Shown here: piece by piece, positions 3,628 to 63,768 of the stretch | How the letters are laid out: every line of letters begins with the position of its first letter | Numbering within the stretch: position 1 is the first letter of the stretch | Assembly (NCBI RefSeq): GCF_004010195.1 | Contig: NC_057718.1 | Location: 66,225,351-66,289,350, forward strand | Source: Chiloscyllium plagiosum | Lineage: Eukaryota | Length of the DNA: 64,000 nucleotides | Direction of reading: 5' to 3' | The notes under the pieces: model-generated | The model's database searches: none | What the model was told of the DNA's origin: nothing | Seen by the model: the letters and a program-made list of their open reading frames with translations, nothing else | Translations under genes and position numbers: made by a program

Positions 3628-4345
3628 GGAATGGCATGGTGGCTCAGTAGTTAGCACTGCTGCCTCATAGCGCCAGGAACCAGGGTTCGATTCCAACCTC
3701 TGCCATCTTTGCACATTCTCCCTGTGTCTGTGTGAGTTTCCTTCAGGTGCTACAGTTTCCTCCCACAATCCAAAGATGTGCAGGTCAGGTAAATTGGCTA
3801 TGCTAAATTGTCACACAACACCAGGTTATAGTCCAACAGGTTTAATTGGAAGCACACTAGCTTTCGGAGCGTCATCAGGTGGTAGTGGAGGGCTCAATCC
3901 TAACACACAGAATTTATAGCAAAACTTCAGTGTGATGGAACTGAAATTATACATTGAAAAATTGATTGTCTGTTAAGCCTTTCATCTGTTAGAATACTGT
4001 GATAGTATCACTTCTTTCATGTGTAAATCACAAAACCTTTTTTTAAAAAAGTTGCATTCTCGGGTTAGCTGTTAACAATGGTGATAGCAAGACAATATGT
4101 TGAAGGTGTTGGCCCCATATGTTCTCTGTCTATGCCATGATGTTTAGATTGATTCTAATCTTAAAAAGTGAGATAACGGAGTTTTACATGAATTCATGCA
4201 GTTTTTGAGCTCAGAGTTATGTAAGTTAGGCACATTAGTTAGCAGTAAATATCGGGTAGGGGAATGGGTCTGGTTGGGTTACTCTTCAGATGGTCAGTGT
4301 GGACTTGTTGGGCTGAAGGATCTGGTTCCACACTGTAGGGATTCG
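3628..4345 (+). mobile_element. HE1-type tRNA-derived SINE split by a Penelope fragment
   Basis: A box (tggctcagtagttag) and B box (ggttcgattcc). Body matches 5630-5938 and resumes after ~4210. Confidence 0.85.
3811..4210 (-). mobile_element. Penelope-like terminal-repeat fragment (family C)
   Basis: Reverse complement of ~34510-34890. Contains a hammerhead-like motif with a deletion. Confidence 0.8.
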
Positions 4346-5629
4346 ATGAAACTGCAAGAATTGACTTTGCAAGGGATCAATAGCGAAAGCTGAGAGTTAT
4401 TGACACAAAATAATAAGCCAATGTGTAATCATTTGTGACAACTATTGAAAGCTAACAAAATGGTCAGACATTGATATGTATCTTAACCATTGATTTAAAT
4501 GAGTTAAAGCATTTAATTGAAATCAATTTGAAGTTTGACCATGTTAAAGCGATGGTGATTTCTTCCCTGTTTTTGAGCCTATTGTCTTGTTATATTTTGG
4601 ATCATTATTATTATTAATGTTGGACTGATGGAATGCAACTCTTTATAGATACACTTTGTACTATTTCAACTATTATGACAAGATAGTTCATCTTCCTTCT
4701 TTCATGTGCAATGGCTTTGGTTCTGGATTATTGACTTTGAGTTCAGAATATACCATGGCAAATTGTGAAAATGAATATAGTGAATGGGATAATTTTAGTG
4801 TGGGCACCAGGAAAAAAATCAATTATTAAATCATTTGCACAATTATTCTGCCATATGGAAAAAAAATGATGAACTATCTTGTCGTAATATTTGAAATTAT
4901 TATAAAATTCCAGCTGATTGATTGATTAATTCAGGGAAGGACTCAGTTATCCTTATCTAGTATGGTCTCATTATGACTTTAGCCTTGCATTATGTGACTG
5001 ACTCAGTGCAAATTTGAAAGGGGAATGGCCAATTCCTGTAATGTGCCACACTTAGAAAGAACTTGCTTTTAGATAATTCATTTAATGACCTTTGTATCAA
5101 GGTGCACCTCAAGCATTTAATTGAGTGATTTCTGTCGTAAGGAAATGTGGCAGACCATTAGTAACAGGGCCCACAAACAACAGCTGTAACTGGCTTTCGA
5201 TGATCTTGATTCGAGGGATAAATATTGTTTAGGATGTAGAGTGATCGCTCTCTTTGTCAAATAATGCTATGGACTCTTTCTCAGTAACCCGAGAAGGTAG
5301 ACACCGTCTTAGTTTAGTATTTCTTCTGATATGTAGAACCTCAAATTTACAGCACTCATTGTGCTAACATTGTGAAGATCAGTAATTTTAAAAAGAAATT
5401 CCAAATTCCCAGTTTTAATTGAAATAATTATCCAATGAAATTTCAGATTTTGAATGAAAGCGTTCACTGAACAAGTGTTTAAACAAAGCAAATAAACATC
5501 TAAACATTTGTACATTAAGGCTGAACATTTCAACAGAATGTATTCCATTCCACTTCTACTCAAGCGTTCCTTATACTTTATGGGATCTTGATGGTTTGTT
5601 CACTTCCGGTGAACAAACCATTCCGGTTT

Positions 5630-5938
5630 GGGCGGCACGGTGGCACAGTGGTTAGCACTGTTGCCTCACAGCGCCAGAGACCCGGGTTCACTTCCCGCCT
5701 CAGGCGACTGACTGTGTGGAGTTTGCACGTTCTCCCCGTGTCTGCGTGGGTTTCCTCCGGGTGCTCCGGTTTCCTCCCACAGTCCAAAGATGTGCAGGGT
5801 CAGGTGAATTGGCCGTACTAAATTGCCCGTAGTGTTAGGTAAGGGGTAAATGTAGGGGTATGGGTGGGTTCGCTTCGGCGGGTCGGTGTGGACTTGTTGG
5901 GCCGAAGGGCCTGTTTCCACACTGTAATGTAATCTAAT
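5630..5938 (+). mobile_element. HE1-type SINE, young and near full length
   Basis: gggcggcacggtggcacagtggttagcac A box, B-box-like gggttcacttcc, CpGs retained. 3' tail (ggccgaagggcctgtttcc) resembles the CR1 tails. Confidence 0.92.
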
Positions 5939-6084
5939 TCTCACCAACTCGACAAACATCCACTCCAGATGCCATCACCGTTCAGTTGCATTAGTGTGTA
6001 GCATCTACAAGATGCATTGCTGAAATTCACCAACGATCCTCAGATGTTCCATTTTCACTGCCAGACTACACCGACCCCTTGGCA

Positions 6085-6662
6085 TCATGGTAGCCCACAA
6101 ATCCACCAACACACTAAAACAGCAGCTAATGAACTTGAAAGACCTTATACAGACAACAAACAAACTACTGTAATTTACAAATTACCGTGCAAGAATTGTA
6201 ACAAACAGTACATTGGACAAACCGGCAGAAAACTAGGCATCAGGATACATGAACATCAACTGACCACGAAACTGCATGATCCTCTCTCATTAGTATCCTT
6301 ACATACAGATGAGGAAGGACAACACATCCATCCTAGGACAAGCCAAACTGAGACATGCAAGAGAATTCCTAGAAGCATGGCATTCCAATCAGAATTCTAT
6401 CAACAAACACATTGACTTGGACCCAATTTATCACCCCCTGAGAAAAAGAACAAGTAATGACATCACCATAGGAAAGGACATCACCAACTCAAAGAAACCC
6501 AACCATATAAACAGAAAGCAGGAAATATCAGTGGTGCTTCGTCCGGAGGCTCATTGAAGATGTAACCTAGTATGATGACGAAACATCTGAAAATGAACCT
6601 TCCAGCCCAGCGAGCCAATCTACATCCAGAACCTCAACCTGAACTACAAATCTTCTCAAAGC
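6085..6662 (+). mobile_element. Penelope-like element 3' part (GIY-YIG endonuclease remnant, family A)
   Basis: VIYKLPCKNCNKQYIGQTGRKLGIRIHEH and 'AREFLEAWHS', frameshifted, followed by the terminal repeat. Confidence 0.9.
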
Positions 6663-8065: not shown

Positions 8066-9830
8066 CTATAGGAAAAGGTGGCATGAGATAGCTTTGACAA
8101 ATAGGGTTAAGGAGAATCCAAAGGGATTTTACAAATACATTAAGGACAAAAGGGTAACTAGGGAGGGAATAAGGCCTTGTGTGTGGAGCCACAGGAGATG
8201 GGGGAAGATACTAAACAAATATTTTGCATCCTTGTTTACTGTGGAGAAGGGCATGGAAGATATAGAATGTGGGGAATAGATGGTGACATCTTGAAAAATG
8301 TCCATATTAGTGGAGGTGGTGCTGGATGTCTTAAAACACACAAAGGTGGATAAATTCCCAGGATCTGATCAGGTATATCCCAGAACTCTGAGAAGCCAGC
8401 GAAGTGACTGCTGGGCCCCTTGCTGAGATATTTATATCATCAGTAGTCACAGGTGAGGTGCTGGAAGACTGCAGGTTGTCTAATGTGGAGCCACTATTTA
8501 AGAAGGGTGGTAAGGACAAGCCAGGGAACTATCGACCAATGAGCCTGATGTCTGTGGTGGAGAGGGAATCCTGTGCATGTATTTGGAAAGGCAAGGACTG
8601 ACTAGGGATAGTCAACATGGATTTGTGTGTGGGAAATCAAGTAACAAAGTGGATTGATGAGGTCTGAGCAGTGGAAGTGATCTATATGGACTTGAATAAG
8701 GTGTTCGACAAGGTTCTCCATGGAAGACTGGCTAGCAAGGTTAGCTCTCACGGAATACAGAGACAACTAGCCATTTGGATACAGGAGCTGGCCTGAAGGT
8801 AGAAGACAGAGGATGGAGGGTTGGTTTTCTGACTGGAGGCCCGTAACCCGTGGTGTGCCACAAGGGTCAATGCTGGGTCCACTACTTTTCATCATTTATG
8901 TAAATGATTTGGGTGTGAGCATAAGAGGTATTGTTAGTAAGCTTGCAGATGACACCAGAATTGGATATGCAGTGGACAGTGAAGGAGGTTACCTCAGATT
9001 ACAGCAGGATCTTGATCAGATGAGCCAATGGACTGAGGAGTAGCAGATGGAGTTTAATTTAGATGAATGAGAGGTGCTGCATTTTGGGAAAGCAATCTGA
9101 GCAGGACTTACACTTAATGATAAAATCCTGGGGAGTGTTGCTGAACAAAGAGACCTTGGAGTGCAGGTTCATAGTTCCTTGAAAGTGGAGTCGCAGGTAA
9201 ATAAGATCGTGAAGGCAGCGTTTGGTATGCTTTCCTTTAATTGGTCAGAGCATTGGGTAAATGAGTTGGGAGGTCATGATGCCGCTCTACAGGGTCAGGC
9301 CACTTTTGGAATATTGCGTACAGTTCTGGTCTCATTAGTATCAGAAAGATGTTGTGAAATTTGAAAGGGTTCAGAAAAGACTTACAAGGACGTTGCCATG
9401 GTTGGAGGATTTGACCTCGAGGGAGAGACTGAATAGTCTGAAGCTGTTTTACTGGGAGCATTGAAGGCTGAGGGGTGACCTTATAGAGGTTTATAAAATC
9501 ACAGGCATTGATAGAATAAATAAAAAGGTCTTTTCCTTGGGGTGGGAGGGTGTAGAACTAGACGGCGTAGGTTTAGGGTGAGAGGGAAAAGATAAAAAGG
9601 AGCTAAGGGGCAACGTTTTCACACAGGGTGGTATGGAATGAGCTGTCAGAGGAAGTGGTGGAGGCTGGTATAATTGCAGCATTTAAAAGGCATCTGGATG
9701 GGTATATGAAGGGTTAAGGGGAATATGGTCCAAATGCTGGCAAATGGGACTAGATTAGGTTAGGGTATCTGGTCAGCATGGACGAGTTGGACTGAAGGGT
9801 CTGTTTCCGTGCTGTGCATCTCTATGACTC
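8066..9830 (+). mobile_element. CR1 LINE, 5'-truncated RT region, disrupted
   Basis: GNYRPMSL, GVPQGSMLGPLLF, KLADD motifs with stops and frameshifts; ctatgactc tail. Confidence 0.95.
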
Positions 9831-10099
9831 ATCTCCTGACATGACATATCTCTATGGTCATCTCCTGAGATAAGCTATCAACATAGTTTACAACCTTGCA
9901 GATTCATCAGTGTTGCTAGCTGCTAGTGAAGCATCAAAACAATAGTTTATAGTCCTTCAGCTGACGTTTGCTTTATATGTGGTTTTCTTGGCGAAGTGGT
10001 GTTCTGGAGTATCCATGTGGTGAATGATATGTATTTGATGGTACTGGGTGACATACAAAGATTTGCCTAATTTAGTTATCATGTGAACTGATCTGGAAG

Positions 10100-10448
10100 G
10101 GTAGCGCGGTGGCTCTGTAGTTAGCACTGCCTCACAGTGTCAGGGACCCAGGTTCGATTCCAGCCTTGGGTAACTGTCTGTGGAGTTTGCATGTACTCCC
10201 CATGTCTGCGTGAGTTTCTGATTGGTGCTCTGATTTCTTCCCATAGTTCAAAGGTGTGTCAGTTGGGTGGATTGGCCATACTAATTACCTATAAGGTTCA
10301 GGAATGTCTAGGTTAATTGGGTTAGCCATGAGAAATGCAGAATCACAGGGATGGAGTAGGGGTATGGGTCTAGGTTGGATGCTATTTGGAGAGTTGATGT
10401 GGATAGTTGGATTGAATGGTCTGTTTCCGCACTGTGGGGATTCTATTC
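10100..10448 (+). mobile_element. HE1-type SINE, diverged
   Basis: A/B boxes and body similar to 5630-5938. Confidence 0.85.
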
Positions 10449-11539
10449 AAAAAATACTGAAGACTTGAGTCAAAAATATGTTCACACTTGACTACATTTT
10501 AAAACCTGCCAAAATAAACTTATCAGATCACAAAGTAAATTTTTGGTTAACCCAATGTCCAAACTGAAGACAAAAGTACAATGGCTTTTCTCTCTTACCT
10601 TTGATGTCACTTGTAGTTCTATTGCCAGTTATGTCACTGCCAGCTCTCCATTGTGGGTCCAGTTCCCATATTGGCTGAAGTCACCATAAAAGCCCACCCT
10701 CTCAATGTCTCTTCTCACTTGAGGTTCAGTGACCCTCTGATTCACTTTGCCATTAGCCATCAAATGTGAGAGCTGTCTTTTGGGCCGAGGGCAGTTTCAC
10801 TTTCCTGCAGTTAAGGACTAATCTCTATCTAGGGCTGTCTCTTCTGCTCTCTGCTGCCACAGTTCTCCTCCAGCTGCAGCTCAGATCCCTGCTTTCTATT
10901 GCTCCAAGACCACGCTAGATTTTTGTCAGATCTCTGGAGTAGGGCATGACCCCATGCTCTTGTAATCTGAAGTGATAATGTTATCAGTGAATGAAGATTG
11001 GCACCTGTTAATTAAATTCATTAATTTAAAATATTCAAATGACATATCTCAGAGACTTGTATTGTTGTTAGAATTTCCACTTTTTGGCTTAAATTAATGA
11101 TTTATTGGAAAGAACAAGTTGATGGCCCTCAGTGTTTTAGTACTGTCTGTAAGACTGCTAGGTGCGGAGTTATTTGCAACATTCAAAGGGAAGTTGGATA
11201 AATATTAAGGGGAGAAAGTTAGAGCCAAGGGAAAACAGTGGGGAGAATAGAATCAATTGGGTAGTTCTTTCAAAGAGTTGGCATTGTCACAATGGGCAGA
11301 ATGGCCTACTATGTGCTGCAAAATTGTATAGTTGCATTATTTATTGGTTCCAACTGCCTAAGTTTACAAACTGACGTACAATAAAACAAGTGGCTCCTGG
11401 TCTATACTCTTACACAAGCATTGAGTCATTGGATGAAAACTCATCACTTCGAATTATTGACATTTTCATGAATGATTTATCAACTACTAGGCTTGTCAGA
11501 TCCTTGTATTTGGAGGATATTTAATTTCTTGATGTTTTT

Positions 11540-11835
11540 TTTTAGATTAGATTACTTACAGTGTGGAAACAGGCCCTTCGGCCCAACAAGTCCACACCGA
11601 CCTGCCGAAGTGCAACCAGACCCATTCCCCTGCATTTACCCGTTCACCTAACACTACGGGCAATTTAGCATGGCCAGTTCACCTAACCTGCACATTTTTG
11701 GACTGTGGGAGGAAACCGGAGCACCCGGAGGAAACCCACGCAGACACTGGGAGAATGTGCAAACTCCACACAGAGTTGCCTGAGGCGGGAATTGAACCTG
11801 GGTCTCTGGCGCTGTGAGGCAGCAGTGCTAACCAC
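11540..11835 (-). mobile_element. HE1-type SINE, young
   Basis: Near reverse complement of 5645-5938. Confidence 0.92.
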
Positions 11836-12652
11836 TTCTTATGTCATTTAACCATTATTGAAATTTCTTCTTTAAAGATGCAGTATCTTCTATAGTTAGT
11901 CAAATTGAGAAATGCGTAAAAGCTTCAAAAATAGGTTCAATAAAATTTCTGATTCTTTCTTATCATATTCAGACTTAAAGGCAGTGTTGATTAAATATAA
12001 AATGCAGCCCTTTTTGTTAAATATGCTAAATTGACTTGAGTTATGGCAAGATGTATTTATGTTGAGTGCAAAAATGCTATAAATTGTTTCTGAGGTCACT
12101 GCAATTCAAAAATGATCAGCTGTTGAGATGCCTGTTGCACAGTAAGAAGCTGTGGTGCTTTAGAGAAAAGAAAAGGCATGTGTTGAACTGAAATACTTTT
12201 TTTTACAGTGGCATTAAGAATATGGAAAACAATTATAATTTTGTAGTGTATTTTGCAATATCTGGAAAGGAAAACTGGACCATTTTATTTCATGATAGTC
12301 ACTCCGTCATCTATGGTTATGGGTGGCTACTGTACAAACTAACTCCGAATAATGTATTTCAACAAAGTTTATCTTTTTCCATGCCATTCTCTTACATAGT
12401 ATTCTGCTCTCTTCCATGCTGACAGTTATGCGCTGTGGTTCCACAGCTATGACACCAACAGTCCCTTGGTAATTTAGTAAAGCCTCTTTGTTAAGTGTGT
12501 GTATCATGCCTAATTGTTTACAAATGCTTTAATATTATAGCTGAGCTAGACCAGATCCATATTTAGCAATTTAAGTAAACTTTCCAGCACAGGTCACTTG
12601 ATATTTCAGAAACAAATTCAGATTCTAGAGAACTGTCCAGGAGGTAGGAACA

Positions 12653-13000
12653 GGGAGAAAGTGAGAACTGTAGATGCTGGAGATTAGAGTTGAGTGTGGT
12701 GCTGAAAAAGCACAGCAGGTCAGACAGCATCCGAGAAGCAGGAGAATCGATATTTTGGGCATAATCCCTTCATCAAGAATGAAGCTTGTGGACCGGGACT
12801 GAGACATAAATGGGAGGGGGAGGGGTTTGGCTTCCTCCAGGCATTGGGTGGTTAGGGTTTGGTGATGGAGGAGGCCCAGGACCTGCATGTCCTTGATGGA
12901 GTTGGAGGGGGAGCTGAAGTGTTCAGCCATTGGGCTGAGGGGTTTGGTGGTGTGGGTGTCCCAGAGATTTTCTCTGAAACAATCTGCAGGTTGACATCCT
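12653..13000 (-). mobile_element. Penelope-like 3' fragment (family B)
   Basis: 'AEHFSSPSNSIKDMQVLGL' and a terminal repeat shared with 22960-23423. Confidence 0.85.
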
Positions 13001-20229: not shown

Positions 20230-20542
20230 CATGGTACTGCTACCTTACAGTGCCAGGGACCTGTGTTCGATTCCAGCCTCTGGTGACTGTGTGGAGTTTG
20301 CACATTCTCCCTGTGCCTGCAAGGATTTCCTCCCACAATACGAAGATGTGCAAGTCAGGTGAATTGGCTATGCAAAAATTGCCTATAATGCTAGGGGAAC
20401 GTGTAGGTTAGGTTAGGTGTATTAGTCGGGAAAATATAGGATAAGAGAGTAGCAGAATGGGTCAGGGTGGGTTACTAATCAGCAGGTTGGTGTGGACTTG
20501 TTGGGCCAAAGGGCATGTTTTCCCATGGTAGGGATTCTATGA
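20230..20542 (+). mobile_element. HE1-type SINE, diverged
   Basis: gttcgattcc B box; body similar to other copies. Confidence 0.8.
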
Positions 20543-20664
20543 AATGCCCTCTGAGAGTTAATTTACACATCAGCTGTATTAACTTAATACTTTCCATTAG
20601 TTCATTGAGGTCAATCAGTACTTAATTCAGTACATCCTTAACAGATTCTTTGTTTTTGCAAGGT

Positions 20665-21380
20665 TTGTGAAGGTTTGTAGCTCAGGTTGAGGTTTAGGGT
20701 GCAGGTTTGATATCCAGACGTTTCATTACCTGGCTAGGTAACATCATCAGTGGCGACCTCCAAGTGAAGCGAAGCTGTTGTCTCCTGCTTTCTATTTATA
20801 TCTTTCTCCTGGATGGGGTTCCTGGGGTTTGTGGTGATGTCATTTCCTGTTCGTTTTCTGACTGGTTGATTGATGGCATCTAGATCTATGTGTTTGTTTA
20901 TGGTGTTGTGGTTGGAGTGCCAGGCCTCTAGGAATTCTCTGGCATGTCTTTGCTTAGCCTGTCCCAGAATAGATGTGTTGTCCCAGTCAAAATGGTGTGT
21001 TTTTTTTTCATCCGTGTGTTGGGCTATGAGGGAGAGAGGGCCGTGTCTTTTTGTGGCTAACTGGTGTTCGTGTCTCCTGGTGGCTAACTTTCTTCCTGTT
21101 TGTCCTACATAGTGTTTGTGACAGTCGTTGCATAGAATTTTGTAGATGATGTTGGTTTTGTCCATGGGTTGTACTGGGTCTTTTAAGTTTGTTAGTTTTT
21201 GTTTGAGAGTGTTGGTGTGTTTGTGTGCTACTAGGATTCCGAGGGGTCTTAGTAGTCTGGCTGTTATTTCTGAAACTTCTTTGATGTATGGTAAGGTGGT
21301 TAGGGTTTCTGGCTGTGTTTGATCTGCTTGTCGTGGTTTGTTCCTGAGGAATCTGCGGACTGTATTTTTCGAGTATCCGG
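20665..21380 (-). mobile_element. Penelope-like element 3' part (GIY-YIG, family A)
   Basis: ORF 20734-21165: NIIYKILCNDCHKHYVGQTGRKLATRRHEH...REFLEAWHS. Homologous to 6085-6662. Confidence 0.92.
20714..20753 (-). ncRNA. Minimal type I hammerhead ribozyme motif (PLE family A)
   Basis: CCA-CUGAUGA-U-GUUACCU(AGCC)AGGUAAU-GAAAC-GUC-UGG: intact core, 7-bp stem II, stem I CCA/UGG. Confidence 0.75.
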
Positions 21381-21425
21381 AGAAGAACGGAATGAATTAA
21401 AGGGCCATGTAGAACTAGGGGGTTG

Positions 21426-21930
21426 TAGAACATAGAGCTGTAGCACAGAAGCGGGCCCTTTGGCCCACGATGTTGTGCAGAAGATGACGCCAAATGAAAT
21501 TAATCCCTTCTGCCTGCCCTTGGTTCATATCCCTCCATTCCTTGTATATTTCACATGCTTATCCAAAAGTCCCTTAAATACCCACATTGTATCTGCCTCC
21601 TCCACCATCCCTGTAGCACGTTCCAGACTCCTAGAACTCTGTTTTGTAAATACAAACTTGCCTCTCCCATCTCTCTCCTTAAATGCATGCCTAGATTCAG
21701 ACATTTCAACTCTGGGGACAGAGAAAGATTTTAACCATTAACCCTCTCTACGCATCTCAAACTTTATAGACTTCTATCAAGTCTCCCCTCAGCCTCTGCT
21801 GCTTCAGAGAAAACAATTCTGGTTTTCCTAGCCTCTCCTTATAGTTCATAGCCTCTGATCCAGGCAGCAATCTGGTTGACCTCTTCTGCACCCTCCAAAG
21901 CCTCTACCTTCTTCCTTTAGTGTGATTACC
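21426..21930 (-). mobile_element. CR1 3' fragment (ttctatg-tail type), decayed
   Basis: tagaacatag tail and antisense CR1 C-terminal motifs. Confidence 0.8.
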
Positions 21931-22959
21931 AGTAGAATAAAAATAAGAGGTCCCACATTTAATACTGAGGCAAGGAAGTGCATATTCTAAGGATGGAATG
22001 CCTTTTGAGGAATTCCTCCTTAGCCATGATATAATTGAATGGTGGAGTAAGCCTACTCTTACTTGTTTGTATTGTATAACTAGGTAAAAATCCTTTCTCT
22101 CAAAACTGCACATCACAAAAACAGCTTTTCCCTCTTGTGTTTATTCCTTGCAAAGTTCACAGCAATTGGAAAAACTGAAATCTGTGCTCTTTTTAAAGAA
22201 AGTTCTAATCCTGAGGTGAACCTGCAAAATGGCACAGATTGTAATTTGAAAATTTACCTAATTATTACACTACATGGTGTATGCTGTTAGTATTGTTTAA
22301 AACCTTAAATGTGATGCCATTTTAAGGAATATAATTCTGCATAATGATGTGTTCTCCATTTTGCTATAGTTGGATATCTTATTCGCAATCAAATTTCCAT
22401 TATGTAACCCAAATTAAAATCCATACCATTTCTATTGCTTCCAGCATGATGCTGCTAGTACCCACCTCTTTCCCTTCCCCTTCTCGAATGCTGAGACTGA
22501 CCTCTACATTTGGGAGACACAAGCAAGTACTCATTTTACGTGTTCATTATTGACATGTCTCCAGAGGAGAGAGCCAAGAATACTTGAATTGTCTCTATAT
22601 TTTGGAATGCCTGTGCTTGGGCTTTCTAATAAAATTGAGATGAATTTATTTGTCAAATATTCATTTATCAAACACATTAGGAGTTCATTGTTTTGATTTA
22701 TAAACTAAATAATCATTCTGTGATTTTGTTAAGACAAGTATTTAGGATTTTTTTTAAAAAGGGCAACATGTAGAACAGAAATGCTTTACAGAAGGATTGA
22801 GAAATAGTCTGTACTGGAGAATTGTTTTGATAATATGGAGCAGATTCGACTTGAAATATGGCTTCTGTTGGTATGTATGCATAGAAACAATTCTGGATTG
22901 AATAGTCTTGAGTAAATTTGCAAAAATCAGTCAGGAGGAATTCCTGGTTTTACTTTTAT

Positions 22960-23423
22960 TCCACATCCATCAAAGTTTTACCTGCACATCCACTAATATA
23001 ATTTATTGTATCCGTTGCTCCCGATGCGGTCTCCTCTACATTGGGGAGACTGGACGCCTCCTAGCAGAGTGCTTTAGGGAACATCTCCGGGACACCCGCA
23101 CCAATCAACCGCACCGCCCCGTGGCCCAACATTTCAACTCCCCCTCCCACTCTGCCGAGGACATGGACATGGAGGTCCTGGGCCTCCCTCACCGCCGCTC
23201 CCTCACCACCAGACGCCTGGAGGAAGAGCTACTTTCTCCCCACACCCACCCTCCTCTAGCTTATCTCTCCTTTGCCTTTGTTCCACTGCCTTTATTCCTG
23301 ATGAAGGGCTTTTGCCCGAAACGTCGATTTCGCTGCTCCGTGGATGCTGCCTGAACTGTTGTGCTCTTCCAGTACCACTAATCCAGAATCTGATTCCCAG
23401 CATCTGCAGTCATTGTTTCTACC
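22960..23423 (+). mobile_element. Penelope-like 3' part (GIY-YIG, family B), internally deleted
   Basis: FTCTSTNIIYCIRCSRCGLLYIGETGR...VAQHFNSPSHS, then the terminal repeat. Confidence 0.92.
23294..23329 (+). ncRNA. Minimal hammerhead ribozyme motif (PLE family B)
   Basis: UC-CUGAUGA-A-GGGC(UUUU)GCCC-GAAAC-GUC-GA: intact core, very short stem I. Confidence 0.65.
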
Positions 23424-23891
23424 TCATAGATAAGGAGATACTCTTACCACTTATAAATAGATTGAGAATGAGAAGGCACATATTTAGTGATTTACAAAAT
23501 AACCAACTGCAAAGTGAGCAAAGACAGATTGAACATGTGTGGCTTCTGTCTGGAATGTGCTCCTTAGAAATGGGTAGAAACAGCTTCAATTGATGTATTC
23601 AAAAGACTACGAAATGTTTCTATTCTAACGATGGGTAGGGCTGTGGAGGAAAAAATGAGACTAGACAATTGCAGGAAGTCAGAATGCTAATTCATAAAGC
23701 CATTGCAGATGTAGCTGGTCAAATGGTGGTCCCTTGCTCTGGGAATCCGTGAACTATACAGTTAAGTCATGTATTTTCTATATCACTGGTTGACACAGAT
23801 TTCTTATTATTGAGGATGGTCCTATATATAGTCTTTGATTTGATTTATATTTCTAAAGGAAGGAATCTATAATATTTTATAATATAATACA

Positions 23892-24373
23892 GCAGGAGCT
23901 ATGCCGCTAATCTTATGGTCGCCATATAAATTTTGTATTTGCCAAAAGCTAAACGTCTAACAATTATAACTACGTTTATTCATGATTTCTGAGCAGTTGA
24001 GTTAAATCAAATTTTGCCATACATAAGTTATACAATGAAATATGTTTGGCAGGTGCGACCTTTTTAAAAAAAGCATTCTATAATCAGTTGTTGTATTCTA
24101 CTGAAATGCACTGCCGCCTTAGTAGATTTTGCTCTTGTACCATCATGCATAGTGTAAGTTGAGAATTGTTGGGTTGTTGTACTCAAGCCCAGTTCCTGTA
24201 ACACCACAGACAGCCACTCCTTTGTATTTTGTCACTAACTGCTTGCTGTTGGCAGTGATGTCTCCCCAGGAGGTAGAAGAACAAGGTTATGCATCTCTCT
24301 GCAGGAGCTATGCCACTAATCTTATGGTCACAATATAAATTTTGTATTTGCCGAAAGCTAAACTTCTAACAAT
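23892..24373 (+). repeat. Dispersed 73-bp direct repeat (23892-23964 and 24301-24373)
   Basis: 68 of 73 positions identical by direct comparison. Confidence 0.9.
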
Positions 24374-24896
24374 GATTCAGACTACATCTGTTGCATTCTG
24401 TGCCTCTTACTGTTGTGTATAATATTGCAGGAAACAAAAGGTGCAAAATGTAATTATGCTCTCTGTAATTGAAAGTTAGCCACAACAAAGAAGTAATTTC
24501 ATTTGATCTACATACAGTCTATGATATTAATGAATGGCTTTGTTTAAAATATAATTGAGTCAGACAAGAAAGGGCATATATAAGCAATAATTGGCACCTG
24601 CTTGCGAGTTTATTATTTCAAATAGCAATTCACTGTCCAACACAGCATGTGAACTCTTCAAAGAAGACTCTGATATTACTTAATCTCATCGTGTATTATG
24701 CAGACTTACCTGATTTATTTTCTACAACATGACTAAACATCATATTGTAGTTTGGAAAATCAGTATTACTTGGCAATAACACCTTGCATGTCATCAGCAC
24801 TGAAATATAATATAAAATACATGTTCTGTTGTAGAGCAGTTTGATGCCTAGTTGTACAGTTCTTGGTCCAGGGTAGATCTGACTCCAAAGAGAGGA

Positions 24897-25135
24897 ATGA
24901 TTTGGGGATGCCAGTGTTGAACTGGGGTGTACAAAGTTTAAAGATCACACGACACCAGGTTATAGTCAAACAGGTTTAACTGGAAGCACTAGCTTTCGGA
25001 GCAGCGCTTCTTCAGGTGGGTGTGGAGGACACAGTTGTGTACTCCACAACCACCTGATGAAGGAGCATCGCTCCGAAAGCTAGTGTTTCCAATTAAACCT
25101 GTTGGACTATAACCGGGTGTTGTGATTTTCAACAA
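24897..25135. mobile_element. Penelope-derived fold-back mini-element (family C)
   Basis: ~87-bp inverted arms (24941-25027 / 25042-25130), the same sequence as the termini of 34075-34898. Confidence 0.85.
25051..25085 (+). ncRNA. Minimal hammerhead ribozyme motif (PLE family C)
   Basis: CAC-CUGAUGA-A-GGAGC(AUC)GCUCC-GAAAG-CUA-GUG: intact core, stem I CAC/GUG. Confidence 0.75.
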
Positions 25136-29388: not shown

Positions 29389-30330
29389 AGAAACTTGTTG
29401 AAACATCAAAGTGACGGTGTAAGAATGCAGTGCCATGTTTTACCCAGGGATGAACTTCTGATCACCCATGTCGGTTACACTGCCAGATATCCTAATTCTA
29501 CCTTTTGTGGCATATCCCTGCCACTTGCAGAAATCCTTGCTGAAATTGCCATCCAAGCCTTTATTATTCCAGTGCTTTCCTGGATGGGCCCCCATCTTGC
29601 CCCCTATTGTAACCTGAACTCATCTAAAACTGTGCTGCCCACATTTGAACTGGCATCACATCCTACTCTGCCATCACTCATGCACTCTCCAATATCTATT
29701 GCCTTCTGTCTCCATTTTAAAAATTGCATTCCTGATATCAAGTTGGTCTCACTGTTTCGATAAACTCCTCCTGACCTAAAATCCTAGAAGATACCTGTAC
29801 TCCTAATCTGGCTTTCTGCTGATTGTGTTACCATAGGTGGTTATGCCTTTAATTAACCAGGCTATAACCATTATAATTATGTCTGTAAACCTATCCACAT
29901 CTATATTGCTTTAAGATTTTCTTTAAAAACTTTTTTTTTGGACCAAGCTTTTGCTCCCAAGTCCTTATGTGGTGTGGTGCCACTAAAATAGAGATAACTG
30001 CCTTATGAAGTGTCTTAGGTTGTTTTTAATAGGTTAAAGGTGCTGTACAAATGTAGTTCTCATCATAGAGTTTCAGAAAGTTTGAGGCCAAAATGATTGA
30101 AGCAATGGAGTCCTTAGAAACAAGGGTTGAGGATTTTCAAACTGGGAATTCGGTTCACTTTCGGAAACAGTACTTTAGACTTTAATGTCCATATTCCCAT
30201 CAAGTATACTCTGGGGGCGGGGAGGGGGAGGAAGGAGAATGTTGGAGTTTATTCCTACCTATCCAAGTAGGAAAAGAGGAATGAAATGGATGTTCTAGTA
30301 TGTAAATAAAAAAAATTTACAGCAGAACAG

Positions 30331-31075
30331 TACTTACACACTCAATGGTAAGGTCCTAGGGAGTGTTGCTGAACAAAGAGACCTTGGAGTGCAGGTTTGA
30401 AAGTGGAGTCGCAGGTAGATAGGATAGTGAAGAAGGCTTTTGGCATGCTTTCCTTTATTGGACAGTGTCTTGAGTACAGGAGTTGGGAGGTCATGTTGCA
30501 GCTGTACAGGTCATTGGTTAGGCCACTGTTGGAATATTGTGTGCAATTCCGGTCTCCTTCCTATCGGAAAGTTGTTGTGAAACTTGAAAGGATTCAGAAA
30601 AGTTTTACAAGGATGTTGCCAGGGTTGGAGGATCTGAGTTACAGGGAGAGGCTGAACAGGCTGGTGCTGTTTTCCCTGGAGCGTCGGAGGCTGAGGGGTG
30701 ACCTTATAGAGGTTTACAAAATTGAGGGGCATGGATAGGATAAATAGGCAAAGTCTTTTCCGTAGGGTTGGGGAGTCCAGAACTAGAGGGCATAGGTTTA
30801 GGGTGAGAGGGGAAAGATATAAAAGAGACCTAAGGGGAAACTTTTTCACGCAGAGGGTGGTACGTGTATGGAATGAGCTGCCAGAGGATGAGGTGGAGGC
30901 TGGTACAATTGCACCATTTAAGAGGCATTTGGATGGGTATATGAATAGGAAGGGTTTAGAGAGATATGGGCCGGGTGCTGGCAGGTGGGAGTAGATTGTG
31001 TTGGGATATCTGGTCGGCATGGATGGGTTGGACCGACGGGTCTGTTTCCATGCGGTACATCTCTATGACTCTAAC
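30331..31075 (+). mobile_element. CR1 3' fragment, young
   Basis: LYRSLVRPLLEYCVQF, TRGHRFRVRGERYKRDLRGNFFTQRVVRVWNELP; ctatgactct tail. Confidence 0.95.
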
Positions 31076-34074: not shown

Positions 34075-34898
34075 GGTGTTGGACTGGGGTGGACAAAGTT
34101 AAAAATCTCACATCACCAGGTTATAGTCCCACAGGTTTTTGCAAGCACGTGCTTTGGGAGCATGCTTCTTCATCAGGTGGTTGTGGAGTATAAGGTCGTA
34201 AGACATAGAATTTATAGCAAAAGTTTACAGCGACAAAAGGCAGACTTCAGGACAGGCAACAGTGCAAAATGGCCGAACTAAGGCTGATAGCCAAGTTTGG
34301 TACCCATGGGGATGGCCTCAACCAGGACCTTGGGTTCATGGCTGCAGTAGACACATGCACCAAGCTCTGACTTTTTTTCACTCTCTCTCGCTTGCTCTCC
34401 TACACGCTCACACAGACCCTCTCTCATACACATATAGGCCCATATGTGTGCACACATAGGTTTGTGGGGTGAATTTGTACTTGCAGAATTACGTTTTATT
34501 TTGCTCAAAAACAGCATGAATCCATGTGAATCCCCTTTTTAAAGAAATAGAATCAGTCTGAACATTGAGGCACAGACAGACTTTAGCCTCACACCTTCAA
34601 TGCATTTTCTGAGCTGACATGGCTCCTATTGTTAGAGTTCACTTGAGAATGTATCTTTTTAAAAGTTCTGTGATTTACATGTGGAAGAAATGAAACCAAC
34701 ATAGTAATTCTAAAAGATGAGACTTGACAAACAATCAAGTTCTTTTTCAATATATTATCTCAGCTGCATCACACTGTAAACTTTTGCTATAAATTCTGTG
34801 TCTTACAATCCACAACCACCTGATGAAGGACCAGAGCTCCTCAAGCTAGTGCTTCTGAATAAACCTGTTGGAATATAACTGGTGTTGTGATTTTTAAC
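34075..34898 (+). mobile_element. Penelope-like element (family C) with inverted 5' terminal repeat
   Basis: ORF tail GRLQDRQQCKMAELRLIAKFGTHGDGLNQDLGFM at ~34239-34340; arms ~34097-34230 and 34774-34898 are inverted. Confidence 0.85.
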
Positions 34899-35554: not shown

Positions 35555-35965
35555 TGGCTCACTATCCACTTGGGAACCCTGCAGCCCTCTGGACTCAATA
35601 TTGAGTTCAGTAATTCTAGGGCCTGAACTCTCCCATGTCCTAGCCCCCAATCCCACACACCAGGCCTTGTTATCACATAGCCTGCCATTACACACTATCT
35701 ATTGTTAGCCACTAACAGTTTCCATTAACAGTTATTCACTTTCCTAGCCAGATCATTATGCACTCCTTTGTCCAACTATTCTACTCTCTCTTTGGGGTCT
35801 ATCCCCACCTATCGTTTACTCCTGACCTTCCTCACTCCATCCTATACTTTGCATATAAACCAATATCTTCCTAGTTAATGTCAATTCTGAGGAAGGGTCA
35901 CTGGACTTGAAACGTTAACTCTGATTTCTCTTCACAGATGCTGCCAGACCTGCTGAGCTTTTCCA
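35555..35965 (+). mobile_element. Penelope-like 3' fragment with hammerhead-like motif at 35884-35919
   Basis: gggaccctgcagcc..ggactcaatattgagttc ORF tail; CUGAGGA-A-GGGUC(ACUG)GACUU-GAAAC-GUU. Confidence 0.75.
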
Positions 35966-36236: not shown

Positions 36237-36950
36237 AGTCATAGAGATGTACAGCATGGAAACAGAGATGGAAATGTGTTGCTGGAGAAGCGCAGCAGGT
36301 CAGGCAGCATCTAGGGAACAGGAGAATCGACGTTTTGGGCATTAGCCCTTCTTCAGGAATGAGGAAAGTTTGTCCAGCAGGCTAAGCCAGGTGGATGGTG
36401 TGTGTTGGAGGCGGGAGAAGGGGTCGTCAGAGGGTGGGCGGGAGACCCTTCGGTCCAACCCGTCCTGCCGACCAGATATCCCATCCCAATCTAGTCCTAC
36501 CTGCCAGCACCCGGCCCACATAATTTTGTAAACCTCTATAAGTTCACCCCTCAGCCTCCGATGCTCCAGGGAAAACAGCCCCAACCTGTTCAGCCACTCC
36601 CTGTAGCTCAGATCCTCCAATTCTGGCAACATCCTTGTAAATCTTTTCTGAACCCTTTCAAGTTTCACAACATCTTTCCGATAGGAAGGAGACCGGAATT
36701 GCACGCAAAATTCCAACAGTGGCCTAACCAATGTCCTGTACAACTGCAACATGACTTCCCAACTCCTGTACTCAATACTCTGACCAATAAAGGAAAGCAT
36801 ACCAAACGCCTTCTTCACTATCCTATCTACCTGCGACTCCATTTTCAAGAAGCTATGAACCTGCACTCCAAGGTCTCTTTTCAGCAACACTCCCTAGGAT
36901 CTTACCATTAAGTGTATAAGTCCTGCTAAGATTTGCTTTCCCAAAATGTG
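36237..36950 (-). mobile_element. Young CR1 3' fragment, tail split by a Penelope piece
   Basis: ORF 36342-36890 RDLGVQVH..RPLLEFCVQF; the tail is interrupted at ~36267-36441. Confidence 0.92.
36267..36441 (-). mobile_element. Penelope family B terminal-repeat fragment
   Basis: Matches 23290-23380 in antisense; hammerhead motif at 36325-36360 with G12 changed to A. Confidence 0.8.
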
Positions 36951-38254: not shown

Positions 38255-38690
38255 CGATGGCCTAGTGGTGTTATTGCTAGACTGTTAATCCAGAGACCCT
38301 AAATTGCTTGAAAAGCTCAGCAGGTTTAGCAGCACCTGTAGAGAGAAATCAGAATTAATGTTTCAGTAGAGTGACCTTTACTCCTCTAACATGTTGGGTA
38401 TCTGGGTTCAAATCCTGCCATAGCAGTTGGTGAAAATTAAATTCAATAATAATCTGGAAATAAAAGTCTATTGTGGCTATGAAACCATTGTCGATTGTCA
38501 GGAAAAACCCATCTGTTTCACTGGTGTCATTTATGGAAGCAAACTGCCATCCTTACCTGGTCTGGCCTACATGTGATTCTAGATCCATAGCAACATGGTT
38601 GATTTTTAACTGCCCTCTGGGCAATTAGGGATGGGAAACAAATGTGGTCTAGCCAGGCATGCCCACATCCCATTGATGAATTAAAAAGCA
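38255..38690 (+). mobile_element. Deu-domain/SacSINE-like SINE with a short Penelope insert (~38305-38385)
   Basis: tggcctagtgg A box, gggttcaaatcc B box, ctgccatccttacctggtctggcctacatgtga core. Confidence 0.7.
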
Positions 38691-42934: not shown

Positions 42935-43800
42935 GTAGGCAGGCAGGAGGCTGGAAGAACATGGCAAGCCAGGCAGCACCAGGAGATAGAGAAGTCGATG
43001 TTTCGGGTGTAACCCTTCTTCAGAACTGGGGTGGGTGGAGGGGGAGCTGCAGGTAAAGGTGGTGGCGGGGGCAGATGGTGAAGTGGGGTTAGGGGAAGAT
43101 AGGTAGAGGGTATGACCTGGTTGGTCAGTAGGAGGAATGAATCTGGTTGGTAGCTGGGAGGAGTGGAAAGGATGGGGAGGGGCTGTGAAGGGAGTCGGGG
43201 AAGGTGAAGGGAGGATATTTGAAATTGGAGAACTCCATATTGAGTTTTCAGGGCTATGGCAGTAGTGTTCCTTCAATGTGCGAAGTGGTTCATTTTGGCA
43301 ATGGAGGAGGCCAAGGATGGTCATGTTGGAAAGGGAGTGGGAAGGGGAATCGAAATGGGCAGTGACTGGGAGGTCCAGTCAGTCCCTGCGGGTCCGGTTG
43401 AGATGCTCAGCAAACTGTTTCCTAAGTTTACGTTCATTCTCTCCAATATCAAGAAGTCCACATCGGAAGCACCTGATGCAATACACTAGGTTGGAAGAGA
43501 GGCAGGTGAACCTCTGTCTCACCTGGAAAGACTGTTTGGGACTCTGGATGGAGGTGAGAGGTGTGGTGAGCTGGTAGCTTTCACATCTTTTGTGGTTGCA
43601 GGGGGGCGGTGGGAGTGTGGCACAAACCAAGGACTGCTGAAGGGAACAGACCTTGTGGAAGGCAGAGAGGGATAGGGAGGGGGAAGATGTTCTTGGTGGT
43701 AATGTCTAGATGGAGTTGGCAGAAGTATTTAAGGATTATGCTTTGGATATGGAGACTGGTGGGGTGGTAGATGAGGACAAGGGGCTTCTGTCTTTCTGGT
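42935..43800 (-). mobile_element. Penelope-like 3' part (GIY-YIG) with hammerhead-like motif at 42994-43026
   Basis: FQVRQRFTCLSSNLVYCIRCFRCGLLDIGE; GUU-CUGAAGA-A-GGGU(UAC)ACCC-GAAAC-AUC-GAC. Confidence 0.88.
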
Positions 43801-56283: not shown

Positions 56284-56500
56284 CAAAGTTAAAATTCACA
56301 ACCCCAGATTATAGACCAACTGATTTATTTGGAGGCGCTGGCTTTTGAGGCGCTGCTTCTTCATCAGGTGGTTCATCAACTACCTGATGAAGAAGCAGCG
56401 CTTCAAAAGCTAGTGACTCCAAATAAGTCAGTTGGTCTATAACCTGGGGTTGTGATTTTTAATTTTGTCCATCCCAGTCCAACACTGGCTTCTCCAAACC
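56284..56500. mobile_element. Penelope-derived fold-back mini-element (family C)
   Basis: ~90-bp inverted arms (56284-56373 / 56378-56467) around a 4-nt loop, with a hammerhead-like motif on each arm. Confidence 0.88.
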
Positions 56501-61204: not shown

Positions 61205-62790
61205 GCAGAAATTGAGGACTGCAGATGCTGGAGATTAGAGTTGAAAAGTGTGGCACTGAAAAAGCACAGCAGGTCAGGCAGAATCTGAGGAGCAGGAGAG
61301 TTGACATTTTGAGCATAAACCCTCCATCGGCAATGTAGGGGAGGAAAATGGGCTGAGAGATAAATAGGATGGTGGAGGGGGGAAGGTAGCTGGGAAGGCA
61401 ATAGTTGGATGCAGGTGGGGGAATGATAGGTTGGATGGGAGGGTGGAGTGGACACTTGGCAAGGAAGATGGACAGGTAGGACAGTTCAAGAGGGCAGTAC
61501 AGAGTTGGGGGGTTGGATCTGGGATGACGTGGGGTGGAGGAGCGATTAGGAAATTAATGAAGTTGATGCCATATGGACAGAGGATCCCAAGGTGGAAGAT
61601 GAGGTATTCTTCCTCCAATCATCCGGTGGCTTGGATTCGGCGGTAGAGGCAGCCCAGGATTTGCATGCCCTTGGGGGAGGGGGGAGGGGGTGGGGTTGAA
61701 GTGCTCAGTCACAGGGTGGTGGGGTTGTTTGGTGTGTATACCAAAGATGTTCCCTGAAACGTTCTGCCAGTTGGCATCCTGCCTCAGTGTAGAGGAGACC
61801 ATGTCAAGAGCAATGGACACAGTAGATGAGGTGTTTGGATGTGCAGGGAAATCTCTGCCAGATGTGGGAGGATCCTTTGGCGCCTTTGGACATAGATGAA
61901 GGCGGGGTGTGTGGGTGCAGGTTTTACACCTCGTGATGGCAAAGGAAGGTGCTGACAGTGGAGGGTTGTTTGGTGGGTGGGTGCATGGACCTAACGGAGT
62001 CACTGAGGGAGCGGAAGCTGTGGAACGCAAGGGTGGGGAGGAAAATATATCTTTGGGGTCTGATTGTAAAAAATAATGGAGAATAATGCACTGTATCTGG
62101 AGATTAGTGGGGTGGAAAGTGAGGACCGGGGGGGGAGGTTTACCTTGTTGCAATTGGAGGAGTAGCGTTCAAGGGTTGAGGCGGGACGTGGAGATACGCT
62201 GTTTGTTGATCACGTGGGAGGGGAAATTGCAGTCCTTGAAGTAGGCCATCTGGGATGTCCAGGTGTCTAATTTCTCCTTCTGACAACAGATACAGCAGAA
62301 GCATTAGGAGTAAGGGATAATGTTTTTACAGAAGAGGGTGCAGGGGTTGGAGGAGGTGTAGTCCAGGTAGTGGGAGTCAGTGGGCAGGCATAGCTGGGGC
62401 CCATGCAGGTGCCCATGGCTACCCCTCTGGTCTAAAGGAAGTGGGAGGATTTGAAGGAGAAGTTGTAAGGGTGAGGCCTAGTTCTGCCAATTGAATGTGT
62501 GTTGGTGGAAGGGCACTGTTTGGGTTGGTGGGAGAGGAAAAAATGGAGGGCTTGAAGGCCTTTGCCAAAGGGGATGGATGTGTACAGGAACTTGGGTGTC
62601 CATAGTGAAGATGAGGTATTGGGAGCTGATAACATAAAAGTCATTGAGGAAGTGGAGGATGTAGGTGGTGTCCCGAATGTATGTGGGGAGTTCCTGGACC
62701 AAGGGGGACAAGATAGTGTCAAGACATGAAGAGACGTATGGTGGACAGGAACAGGCGAAGACATTAGGTCAACTAGGGCAGTCAGGTTTG
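61205..62790 (-). mobile_element. Penelope-like element (family B) with RT and GIY-YIG remnants
   Basis: LVQELPTYIRDTT..LIFTMD, GVAMGT.MGPSYA, 'VLTFHPTN', 'EEEYLIFHLG..GIN', then the terminal repeat. Confidence 0.9.
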
Positions 62791-62792
62791 TG

Positions 62793-63768
62793 AAGGATCG
62801 GTGCTATAGGTCCACTATTTCATCATTTATATAAATGACTAGGATGTGAGCATAAGAGGTATAGTTCGTAAATTTGCAGATGACATCAAAATTGGAGAAG
62901 GTTACCTCTGAGTACAACAGGATCTTGATCATATGGGCCAATGGGCTGAAAAGTGCAAGATGGAGTTTAATTCAGATAAATGTGAGGTGCTGCATTTTGG
63001 GAAAGCAAATCTTAGCAGGACTCTTACACTGAATGGTAAGATCCTAGGGAGTGTTGCTGAACAAAGAGACCTTGGAGTGCAGGTTCATAGCTCCTTGAAC
63101 GTGGAGTCACAGGTAGATAGGATGGTGAAGAAGGCACTTCATATGCTTGCCTTTATTGGTCAGAGTATTAAGTACAGGAGTTGGGATGTCATGTTGCAGC
63201 TGTACAGGTCATTGGTTAGGCCACTGTTGGAATATTGCATGCAATTCTGGTCTCCTTCCTATCGGAAAGATGTTGTGAAACTTGAAAGAGTTCAGAAAAG
63301 ATTTACAAGGATGTTGCCAGGGTTGGAGGATTTGAGCTATAGGGAGAGGCTGAATAGGCTGGTGCTGTTTTCTCTGGAGTGTCCGAGGCTGAGGGGTAAC
63401 CTTTATAGAAGTTTATAAAATCATGAGCGGCATGGATATGATAAATAGACAAGGTCTTTTCCCTGGGGTGGAGAGTCCAGAACTAGAGGGCATAGGTTTA
63501 GGATGAGAGGGGAAAGATATAAAAGAGACTTAAGGGGCAACTTTTTCACAGAGGGTGGTGCATGCATGGAATGAACTGCCAGAGGAAGTGGTGGAGACTA
63601 GCATAATTGCAACATTTTAAAAAGCATCTGGATGTGTATATGAATAGGAAAGGTTTGGAGGGATATGGCCAGGTGCTGGTAGGTGGGAGTAGATTGTGTT
63701 GGGATATCTGGTCGGCATGGACGAGTTGGACCGAAGGGTCTGTTTCCGTGCTGTACATCTCTATGACC
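62793..63768 (+). mobile_element. CR1 3' fragment, young
   Basis: KFADD, MEFNSDKCEVLHFG ... [13 protein letters not shown]; ctatgac tail. Confidence 0.95.

Follow-up and report, generated by a model that had tools for sequence, protein, structure and literature searches.

Minimal type I hammerhead motifs in the pLTRs of three Penelope-like element families of a shark

The window, i.e. the whole stretch analysed, comprises 64,000 nucleotides (64 kb) of the Chiloscyllium plagiosum genome. No host gene was identified in it, because the Pfam matches in 150 of the 155 stop-free stretches of at least 70 amino acids are to repeat-derived domains only; short exons would escape such a search. It contains insertions of three families of Penelope-like elements (PLEs), here called A, B and C, each with a hammerhead motif.

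20652..21396, minus strand: family A, 5'-truncated 3' end of a probable Poseidon-type PLE, thumb/GIY-YIG endonuclease and then pLTR
20714..20753, minus strand: hammerhead A, predicted cut after GUC (20717/20716)
22959..23424, plus strand: family B, 5'-truncated PLE 3' end with GIY-YIG endonuclease, an internal deletion near 23227, and pLTR
23294..23329, plus strand: hammerhead B, predicted cut at 23325/23326
24897..25133, no single strand: family C insertion, extremely 5'-truncated and inverted, a hairpin of about 240 nt made of two pLTR ends
25051..25085, plus strand: hammerhead C, predicted cut after CUA (25082/25083)
25092..25097, plus strand: ATTAAA, the poly(A) signal in the pLTR of family C, with a GU/U-rich stretch downstream
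25109..25112, plus strand: poly(A) addition sites of family C, placed at family level by RNA reads that stem from copies other than this locus

The sequence read at each place agrees exactly, in position and letters, with the three motifs of the original prediction. All contain the core CUGANGA / GAAA / UH. Stem II has 7 bp in A, 4 bp in B and 5 bp in C, and the extra base claimed between A9 and stem II is present (U in A, A in B and C). Stem III is, as proposed, a loopless palindrome, ACGU in A and B and AGCU in C; the covariation claimed for it stands in that the palindromes differ by family, but it amounts to one single change between families. The 10.1-11.1 pair is G-C in B and C and in sister subfamilies of A, and G-U in the window copy of A and most of its subfamily. 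This G-U pair and the short stem I (2 bp in B, 3 bp in A and C) are the weak points of the motifs.

A strict descriptor (core, stem II of at least 4 bp, stem I of at least 2 bp, Watson-Crick pairs at 15.2/16.2, UH) that allows a loopless stem III retrieves A, B and C. It gives four matches in the window versus none in 300 Markov shuffles. An Rfam scan of the window returned 13 matches at E<=10, none of them to a hammerhead family; the microRNA-like ones are the family C hairpins. The monomer folding z-scores range from -0.6 to -1.2, and for A and B the predicted monomer fold pairs up the core.

Linkage of reverse transcriptase (RT) and GIY-YIG endonuclease was found for all three families, with GIY-YIG matches that lie under the Pfam cut-off and motifs that are visible. 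The stop-free frame of family A (20737-21396, 220 aa) has a weak GIY-YIG match (E 0.03). The window copy is 89-93% identical to loci L025 and L027, the latter having, in frame with the endonuclease part, a DKG sequence of the RT side, as well as an RVT_1 match (E 0.016). A CX2-5CxxC linker ahead of the GIY motif is absent from family A, as in the Penelope/Poseidon clade. None of eight loci is a full-length family A element with an intact upstream motif; two retain the 3' half of it. The first bases of stem II in family A overlap an AUG that lies 28 nt upstream of the cut; one broken copy (L064) suggests that this AUG is tied to the ORF.

In family B, frame 22902-23351 matches GIY-YIG with E 0.0056, and 23251-23423 is 87.6% identical to L023, where RT motifs (YIDD, by eye) lie upstream on the same strand. 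The CX2-5CxxC linker is found in loci L013 and L035 of family B and in L049 and L053 of family C, as in the Neptune or Nematis clade. No poly(A) signal was seen in family B. For family C, locus L051 has an RVT_1 match (E 2e-07), and the full-length members L022 and L055 carry a hammerhead at both ends, on one strand and 2.5-3.0 kb apart. Along a family C element, about 300 nt separate the stop codon from the hammerhead, behind which come the poly(A) signal, the tail and the next start codon. Judged from sequence, one family appears to be Poseidon-type (A) and two Neptune/Nematis-type (B, C). The window copies of A, B and C are 5'-truncated inserts; 5' truncation, an inverted 5' copy and a one-sided tail of 30-40 bp are present, as in endonuclease-bearing PLEs. 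As the original prediction had it, the motifs are minimal type I hammerheads of three PLE families; they are positioned 3' of the endonuclease, and they covary between subfamilies.

The exact patterns occur 2,126 (A), 18,306 (B) and 14,857 (C) times in the genome, with no match to the reversed controls. A relaxed core pattern, which leaves base pairing aside, has 208,833 matches versus 980 for its control, i.e. roughly 200,000 cores or 59 per Mb. The covariation claimed at family level is borne out by five motif types in the window and by a U-A, U-G, C-G series in the A group. At a stem II position that the search pattern does not constrain, about 96 of 100 copies of this group pair among the matches listed (by eye; U-A 20, U-G 12, C-G 64). 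This covariation is imperfect, because in the commonest subfamilies the next position is mismatched (A-G or G-G). The A-group subfamilies are not independent events. A candidate family with an A/U palindrome (6,580 matches, control 1,081) was rejected, those listed resembling decayed ACGU copies.

In total, 16 hammerhead copies are found in the window at E<0.01, none of them in tandem units. The seven further copies that had been described as decayed all exist, but the core at 35884-35919 is intact, and the list was incomplete, as six more copies had been overlooked (marked new).

3827..3897, minus strand: C copy, 8 nt of stem II deleted (new)
6551..6590, plus strand: older A-type copy, decayed, C3 and palindrome changed
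12745..12780, minus strand: B copy, decayed, C3, G12 and palindrome changed
24987..25018, minus strand: C hammerhead in the inverted arm (copy 24961-25038), stem II damaged (new)
34122..34192, minus strand: C copy, inverted partner of 34817-34851 (new)
34817..34851, plus strand: C copy, decayed, G12 lost
35884..35919, plus strand: motif type D (the fourth), with GUU triplet and intact core, fourth match to the strict descriptor
36325..36360, minus strand: B-subfamily copy, G12 changed
38329..38384, minus strand: D copy, decayed (new)
42994..43026, minus strand: motif type E (the fifth), with ACAU as a decayed palindrome
56284..56467, no single strand: another family C hairpin, in which both hammerheads have decayed
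56381-56415 (plus) and 56310-56374 (minus, new): C copies within this hairpin
61274..61339, minus strand: B copy, decayed, end of a B-family fragment (new)

Core protection was evaluated on 85 non-seed copies, of which 8 were dropped and 77 kept, and no significant signal was obtained. G12 is changed in 22 of 67 unselected B and C copies, compared with 19 of 84 CpG positions in the flanks (P 0.20), and the non-CpG 3' core in 8/307 versus 113/2,708 in the flank (P 0.22). A filtered version makes the core appear more conserved (non-CpG core 32/690, flank 189/2,438, P 0.004), but its filter removes copies with mutated cores and so biases the result. An earlier version (core 93/715, flank 194/2,291) was biased by assigning all intact copies to the seed class.

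The family C hairpin has a self-match at 24938-25132 (82.5%), a minimum free energy of -130.7 kcal/mol (z -18) and, when boundaries and arm ends are compared, a tail of about 40 bp on the left arm only. A propagating MITE-like hairpin subfamily was considered and rejected, since hairpin centres and arm ends differ, though a few centres recur. Of the 37,768 cores of family C, 32,200 have AWTAAA about 10 nt downstream of the cut. In one sample (run X19, a poly(A) library), 1,390 reads (612 + 778) carry non-templated poly(A) 27-30 nt beyond the uncut C site. Genomic A-tails were rejected as their origin: an A-run is absent at these sites from all 37 of the 37 copies, and there were no genome matches, with simple repeats maybe under-searched. 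The poly(A) site of the family C pLTR is therefore used, at family level and in this sample, and our analysis adds that the family C hammerhead stands directly before it. A used poly(A) site right after a hammerhead was not found in the PLE literature searched.

Can the window copies act together? Hammerhead A is on the strand opposite to B and C, and no two intact same-strand copies of one family exist in the 64 kb. In a double hammerhead stem I is intermolecular, so cross-family pairs lack it (A-B 0 bp, A-C 0 bp, B-C 1 bp). Since strands, stems I and palindromes differ, A, B and C cannot partner each other, and the double-hammerhead topology is predicted to be possible for homodimers only. 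In a nearest-neighbour model that omits core contacts, the double hammerhead lies 2-10 kcal/mol above two folded monomers. Within the 240-nt hairpin the modelled stem II probability of C is 0.0, versus 0.98-1.0 alone; according to this model, transcription of both arms would trap the C hammerhead in pairing with its inverted twin. The suggested cleavage by intact window copies through palindrome pairing is not supported.

We consider it probable that these minimal type I hammerheads in the pLTRs of three PLE families have the following role. In a few source elements the motif would be selected as a conditional self-cleaving site. The monomer would be inactive, cutting only as a same-family pair in tandem transcripts, via the palindrome and stem I; alternatively, an element protein may help the hammerhead to fold. 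Cutting would trim element RNA from longer transcripts. Since the insertions span both sides of the cut and pass the C poly(A) site, they would be templated by uncut, read-through (or re-ligated) RNA. Most insertions would have ended early, so that pLTR ends were left behind singly or as inverted pairs. The window copies are most likely neutrally decaying leftovers, without partner and without function.

The same motifs might instead have no useful cutting in vivo, serving a PLE protein as fold or binding site or being carried along as a passenger, which we regard as unlikely. Catalytic mutants of the anole element leave in vitro insertion unaffected, with no RNA ends at the cut (PMC11167929), Naiad PLEs thrive without canonical hammerheads, and our poly(A) reads pass the C site uncut with no pile-up listed. 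However, catalytic core and UH triplet are retained in five motif types with different stems, a C3/G8 double mutant partly restores cleavage of the anole element (PMC11167929), and the 30-nt 3' cleavage product would escape detection in X19. A mere chance likeness in repeat DNA would fit the lack of Rfam matches and the weak folding z-scores. It is refuted by the shuffles, by the genome counts over control and by the fixed place in PLE pLTRs, and has a negligible probability.

It is also very improbable that dispersed intact copies pair up, cut host pre-mRNA or mRNA and affect host genes. The copy number is very high, therefore long introns will sometimes contain two same-strand copies, and two same-strand pairs within 3 kb are seen (by eye) among the first 100 family C matches listed. 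Family RNA is present in X19, run X4 (presumed RNA) has low-depth contigs in unique flanks, and Xenopus introns are reported to be depleted of retrozymes. Among the listed datasets that contain the stretch, none is recorded as RNA. Against this, the same 100 matches hold 11 inverted pairs, and inversion buries the motif; the window offers no compatible partner, cross-family stems I fail to form, and core protection is not significant. Dimer activity is low in the 2014 description (PMC4209133). In X19, the one poly(A) library, only 33 of 4,937 reads have at least 99% identity, the unique flanks have zero depth, with no host transcript, and no read ends pile up at the predicted cuts; therefore the proposed cleavage of host pre-mRNA is unsupported.

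The finding itself matters little, because it is a rediscovery, in a shark, of a result described in 2014 (PMC4209133); the original prediction rightly treated this kind of motif as established. Its use, of some value to specialists, lies in the roughly 200,000 cores as a large natural set to ask whether introns select against intact sense copies, and in the layout of family C, which lets the role of PLE hammerheads be tested, since cleavage would remove the poly(A) tail at a defined nucleotide. A doubtful extension is that the family C pLTR might be a portable, ribozyme-gated poly(A) site. If so, in about 32,000 genomic C copies a functional poly(A) junction would follow the hammerhead cut at a distance of 27-30 nt, and the ribozyme, activated by a second copy or an element protein, would remove the tail from those element or host RNAs that end there, sorting RNA into translated, destroyed and read-through (insertion template) fates.

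The closest known system is the min-HHR of metazoan PLEs (Cervera and de la Pena 2014, PMC4209133). Four traits are shared with that description, namely the core, the missing loop III, the palindrome at 15.2-16.2 and the base between 9 and 10.1; so are the presence of several covarying families in one genome, a predominance of solo copies, and opposite-strand pairs 100-700 bp apart. By the same text, the shark differs in the shorter stems of B and C (stem II 4-5 bp, stem I 2-3 bp) and in the G10.1-U11.1 pair of the window's A subfamily. The shark also has far more copies, 208,833 by our core pattern, in which pairing plays no part; the survey's descriptor counted about 4,000 for coelacanth and 9,000 for Xenopus, so the figures are not like for like. 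No shark is named in the consulted parts of the survey.

In the anole Poseidon element PAc (Frangieh et al. 2024, PMC11167929) the motif needs protein in order to cut, insertion proceeds mainly from uncut RNA, and RNA ends do not pile up. Family A resembles it as a Poseidon-type element with a tail past the motif and an AUG at the beginning of stem II, whose distance to the cut is 28 nt compared with 26 nt in PAc; cutting by the family A hammerhead is a prediction. Families B and C resemble the Neptune/Nematis PLEs (Craig et al. 2021, PMC8557442) in their CX2-5CxxC linker, inverted 5' copies and one-sided tail; the poly(A) site used directly after the hammerhead sets family C apart from what the papers searched describe. 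Non-LTR retrozymes, with up to 120,000 copies in axolotl (PMC7229834; bioRxiv 10.64898/2026.07.22.740005), likewise combine type I hammerheads tied to PLE pLTRs with very high copy number, but they form tandem arrays, whereas the copies in the window occur singly or in inverted orientation, with coding remnants retained in A and B.

Reading of the window sequence confirmed the hammerhead motifs of three Penelope-like element (PLE) families, with the sequences and places originally predicted: A (20714-20753, minus strand), B (23294-23329, plus strand) and C (25051-25085, plus strand). A strict descriptor matched four window motifs, these three and 35887, and nothing in the shuffles (0/300). With window-derived queries, nhmmer finds 16 hammerhead copies in the window at E<0.01 (A 2, B 4, C 7, D 2, E 1). 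All seven further copies of the original prediction are among them, but the one at 35884-35919, which had been called decayed like the rest, has an intact core. Rfam gives no hammerhead match in the window. Exact patterns have 2,126 matches for A, 18,306 for B and 14,857 for C across the 3.56-Gb genome (reversed controls 0), and a relaxed core pattern, applied without a check of stem pairing, matches 208,833 times vs 980 for its control. That A, B and C resemble the hammerhead by chance is practically out of the question. Other features of the window are:

35884-35919: type D motif, GUU triplet
42994-43026: type E motif, 4-bp stem II with 3-nt loop
503-975 / 1534-2019, 8876-9830, 30325-31071, 62809-63767: abundant repeat family, many copies, once an inverted pair
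3632-3812, 5613-5943, 10099-10455, 11539-11836, 20236-20544, 47996-48344: ~300-bp repeat, six copies, SINE-like by size
47667-47733 / 49128-49194: perfect 67-bp inverted repeat, 1.4 kb apart

The 3' flanks of types D and E are like those of family B. The abundant repeat family, which includes part of an RT at 8771-9040 (RVT_1, E 5.7e-08), is probably a LINE.

Across families, stems of differing length and sequence all remain paired, as predicted. The covariation claimed for stem III is seen (palindrome ACGU vs AGCU), but it is just one event, and the 2-bp length of stem I in B is a caveat on between-family covariation. In the A group, a pattern-free stem II position pairs in ~96 of the 100 copies listed, counted by eye (U-A 20, U-G 12, C-G 64), vs ~84 expected with independent sides, copies within one subfamily not being independent. 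At the adjoining position, A-G and G-G mismatches are frequent.

Judged from sequence, the carriers of A, B and C are PLEs, their clades being assigned by motifs only. Motif A comes directly after a frame of 220 aa in which a GIY-YIG motif is seen (E 0.03, a weak Pfam match). Loci L025 and L027 share 89-93% identity with the window's A element, and in L027 RT-side sequence shares a frame with the A-type endonuclease region. The family A element is without the CX2-5CxxC linker, an absence that marks Penelope/Poseidon in the available text of PMC8557442, and A is therefore assigned to this type. Motif B lies 3' of a GIY-YIG frame (E 0.0056); the window copy matches locus L023, which has RT motifs upstream, and the linker was found in family B loci. 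At the family C copy in the window there is no coding DNA. Two family C loci (L022, L055) carry a motif at each end on the same strand, spaced 2.5 and 3.0 kb, with RT sequence between, and a third (L049) has the order linker, GIY-YIG, stop and, after 305 nt, motif. Among named proteins, the nearest relatives of the family C protein come from sharks, with identity up to 92%. Part of the family C ORF recurs at 85% identity in P0024, a shark protein whose annotation is that of an epn2 isoform, either through exon capture or as an artefact of annotation. The extra U of family A falls within an AUG (A9-U-G10.1, 20742-20744, minus strand), and the frame opened there crosses the motif, as it likewise does in anole Poseidon. 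At locus L064 this frame, with one stop inside, reaches an N-terminus-like stretch ~255 codons before the DKG motif.

In a double hammerhead, stem III and stem I both form between two copies. The core is paired in the predicted fold of the A and B monomers, and predicted homodimers have a stem III of 4 bp and a stem I of 2-3 bp. For the A-B pair, stem III is predicted to be possible and stem I absent; in A-C and B-C the palindrome is broken. No two intact same-strand copies of one family occur in the window. In the folding model, stem II of C has probability 0.0 with the inverted arm and 0.98-1.0 without it. The original prediction of cutting through pairing of these copies is not supported, for lack of a compatible same-family, same-strand partner in the window and by the predicted loss of C stem II, and cleavage of host RNA by dispersed copies is highly improbable.

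The inverted arm belongs to the hairpin 24897-25133 (-130.7 kcal/mol, z -18), half of which is the family C window copy. Its tail is on a single arm, the inverted form with one-sided tail described for PLEs in the available text of PMC8557442. The genome holds 2,010 tight family C hairpins (centres <=30 nt) with mostly differing centres; hairpins in the window lie at 24897-25133 and 56284-56467. The inversion point of the tight hairpins is <=30 nt from the motif, and many show short local duplications at the centre, which suggests an origin by snap-back priming. By eye, the first 100 family C matches listed include 11 divergent pairs within 2 kb and 2 same-strand pairs within 3 kb.

RNA was read from X19, a single-cell poly(A) library from one sample, of which ~2% was used; it shares the species label of the DNA run X15, which matches unique window flanks at 0-2 differences. 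Only 33 of the 4,937 X19 reads matched to the window reach >=99% identity and depth is zero across the unique flanks 21986-22909 and 23526-24757, so the signal stems from other copies. Low-depth contigs of X4, RNA by guess, cover part of these flanks. The mate direction in X19 is alike on the B endonuclease part (22910-23217) and the A element (20600-21369), which lie on opposite strands, and B-family RNA thus appears mostly antisense.

At the family level, the family C poly(A) signal is in use in X19. Directly 3' of the hammerhead, the family C pseudo-LTR has a poly(A) signal and a GU-rich stretch (25092-25112 in the window, and family-wide), with AWTAAA 3' of the core in 32,200 of 37,768 family C cores; by eye, A and B have no comparable signal. 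Among the positions listed, poly(A) follows 25109 in 612 reads and 25112 in 778, which is 27/30 nt beyond the predicted cut and 12-15 nt past ATTAAA. The tail is non-templated, since an A-run is absent at this position in 37/37 copies and the poly(A)-bearing junction has 0 genome matches. Given a read length of 150 and a loose length of 68-69, these reads cross the predicted cut. Beyond 25042, 598 reads extend 5' into family-pseudo-LTR-like sequence. No pile-up of read begins or ends is present among the positions listed, in a library that would miss a 30-nt cut product. A ribozyme-gated poly(A) site in family C is unlikely.

Decay was followed in 141 distinct copies retrieved by their 3' flanks, of which 77 were used after excluding 56 that matched the fetching pattern and 8 without stem II. 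G12 is changed in 22/67 CpG cases vs 19/84 flank CpGs (P 0.20), and the non-CpG 3' core in 8/307 vs 113/2,708 in the flank (P 0.22). Under an alternative filter, which favours intact cores, the core is more conserved (P 0.004) and all 11 core bases are kept in 33/69 copies. As the sample is small, weak selection on the core may be present. In genomic family C copies the sequence on either side of the cut is present, and the copies extend 21 to ~60 nt past the poly(A) site; because they span both, the insertion template would be uncut read-through or re-ligated RNA. The ribozyme would be selected in source elements for conditional RNA processing and inert in dispersed copies, a reading we regard as quite probable. 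That the hammerhead is kept as passenger or binding site, with no cutting, is unlikely.

The motifs are real, and their kind is ordinary and already known. The available text of PMC4209133 already describes a palindromic stem III without a loop, the extra base at 9/10.1, families that covary, copies standing alone or on opposite strands and low dimer activity, with Poseidon and Neptune as fish carriers. No shark-specific report was found in the open literature, although the supplements of PMC4209133 could include shark motifs; one cartilaginous fish is included in the preprint 10.64898/2026.07.22.740005, as far as its text was available. No paper describing a PLE hammerhead with an adjacent poly(A) signal was found in the accessible texts, subscription papers being outside the scope. 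The comparison also took in parts of PMC6765202, PMC2377424 and PMC3846280, and of PMC7229834, where axolotl retrozymes reach up to 120,000 copies. An uncut or re-ligated template is in line with the work on Poseidon of the anole (PMC11167929), in whose available text the ribozyme cleaves with protein only, insertion is unaffected by ribozyme mutants and no RNA ends are mapped at the cut.
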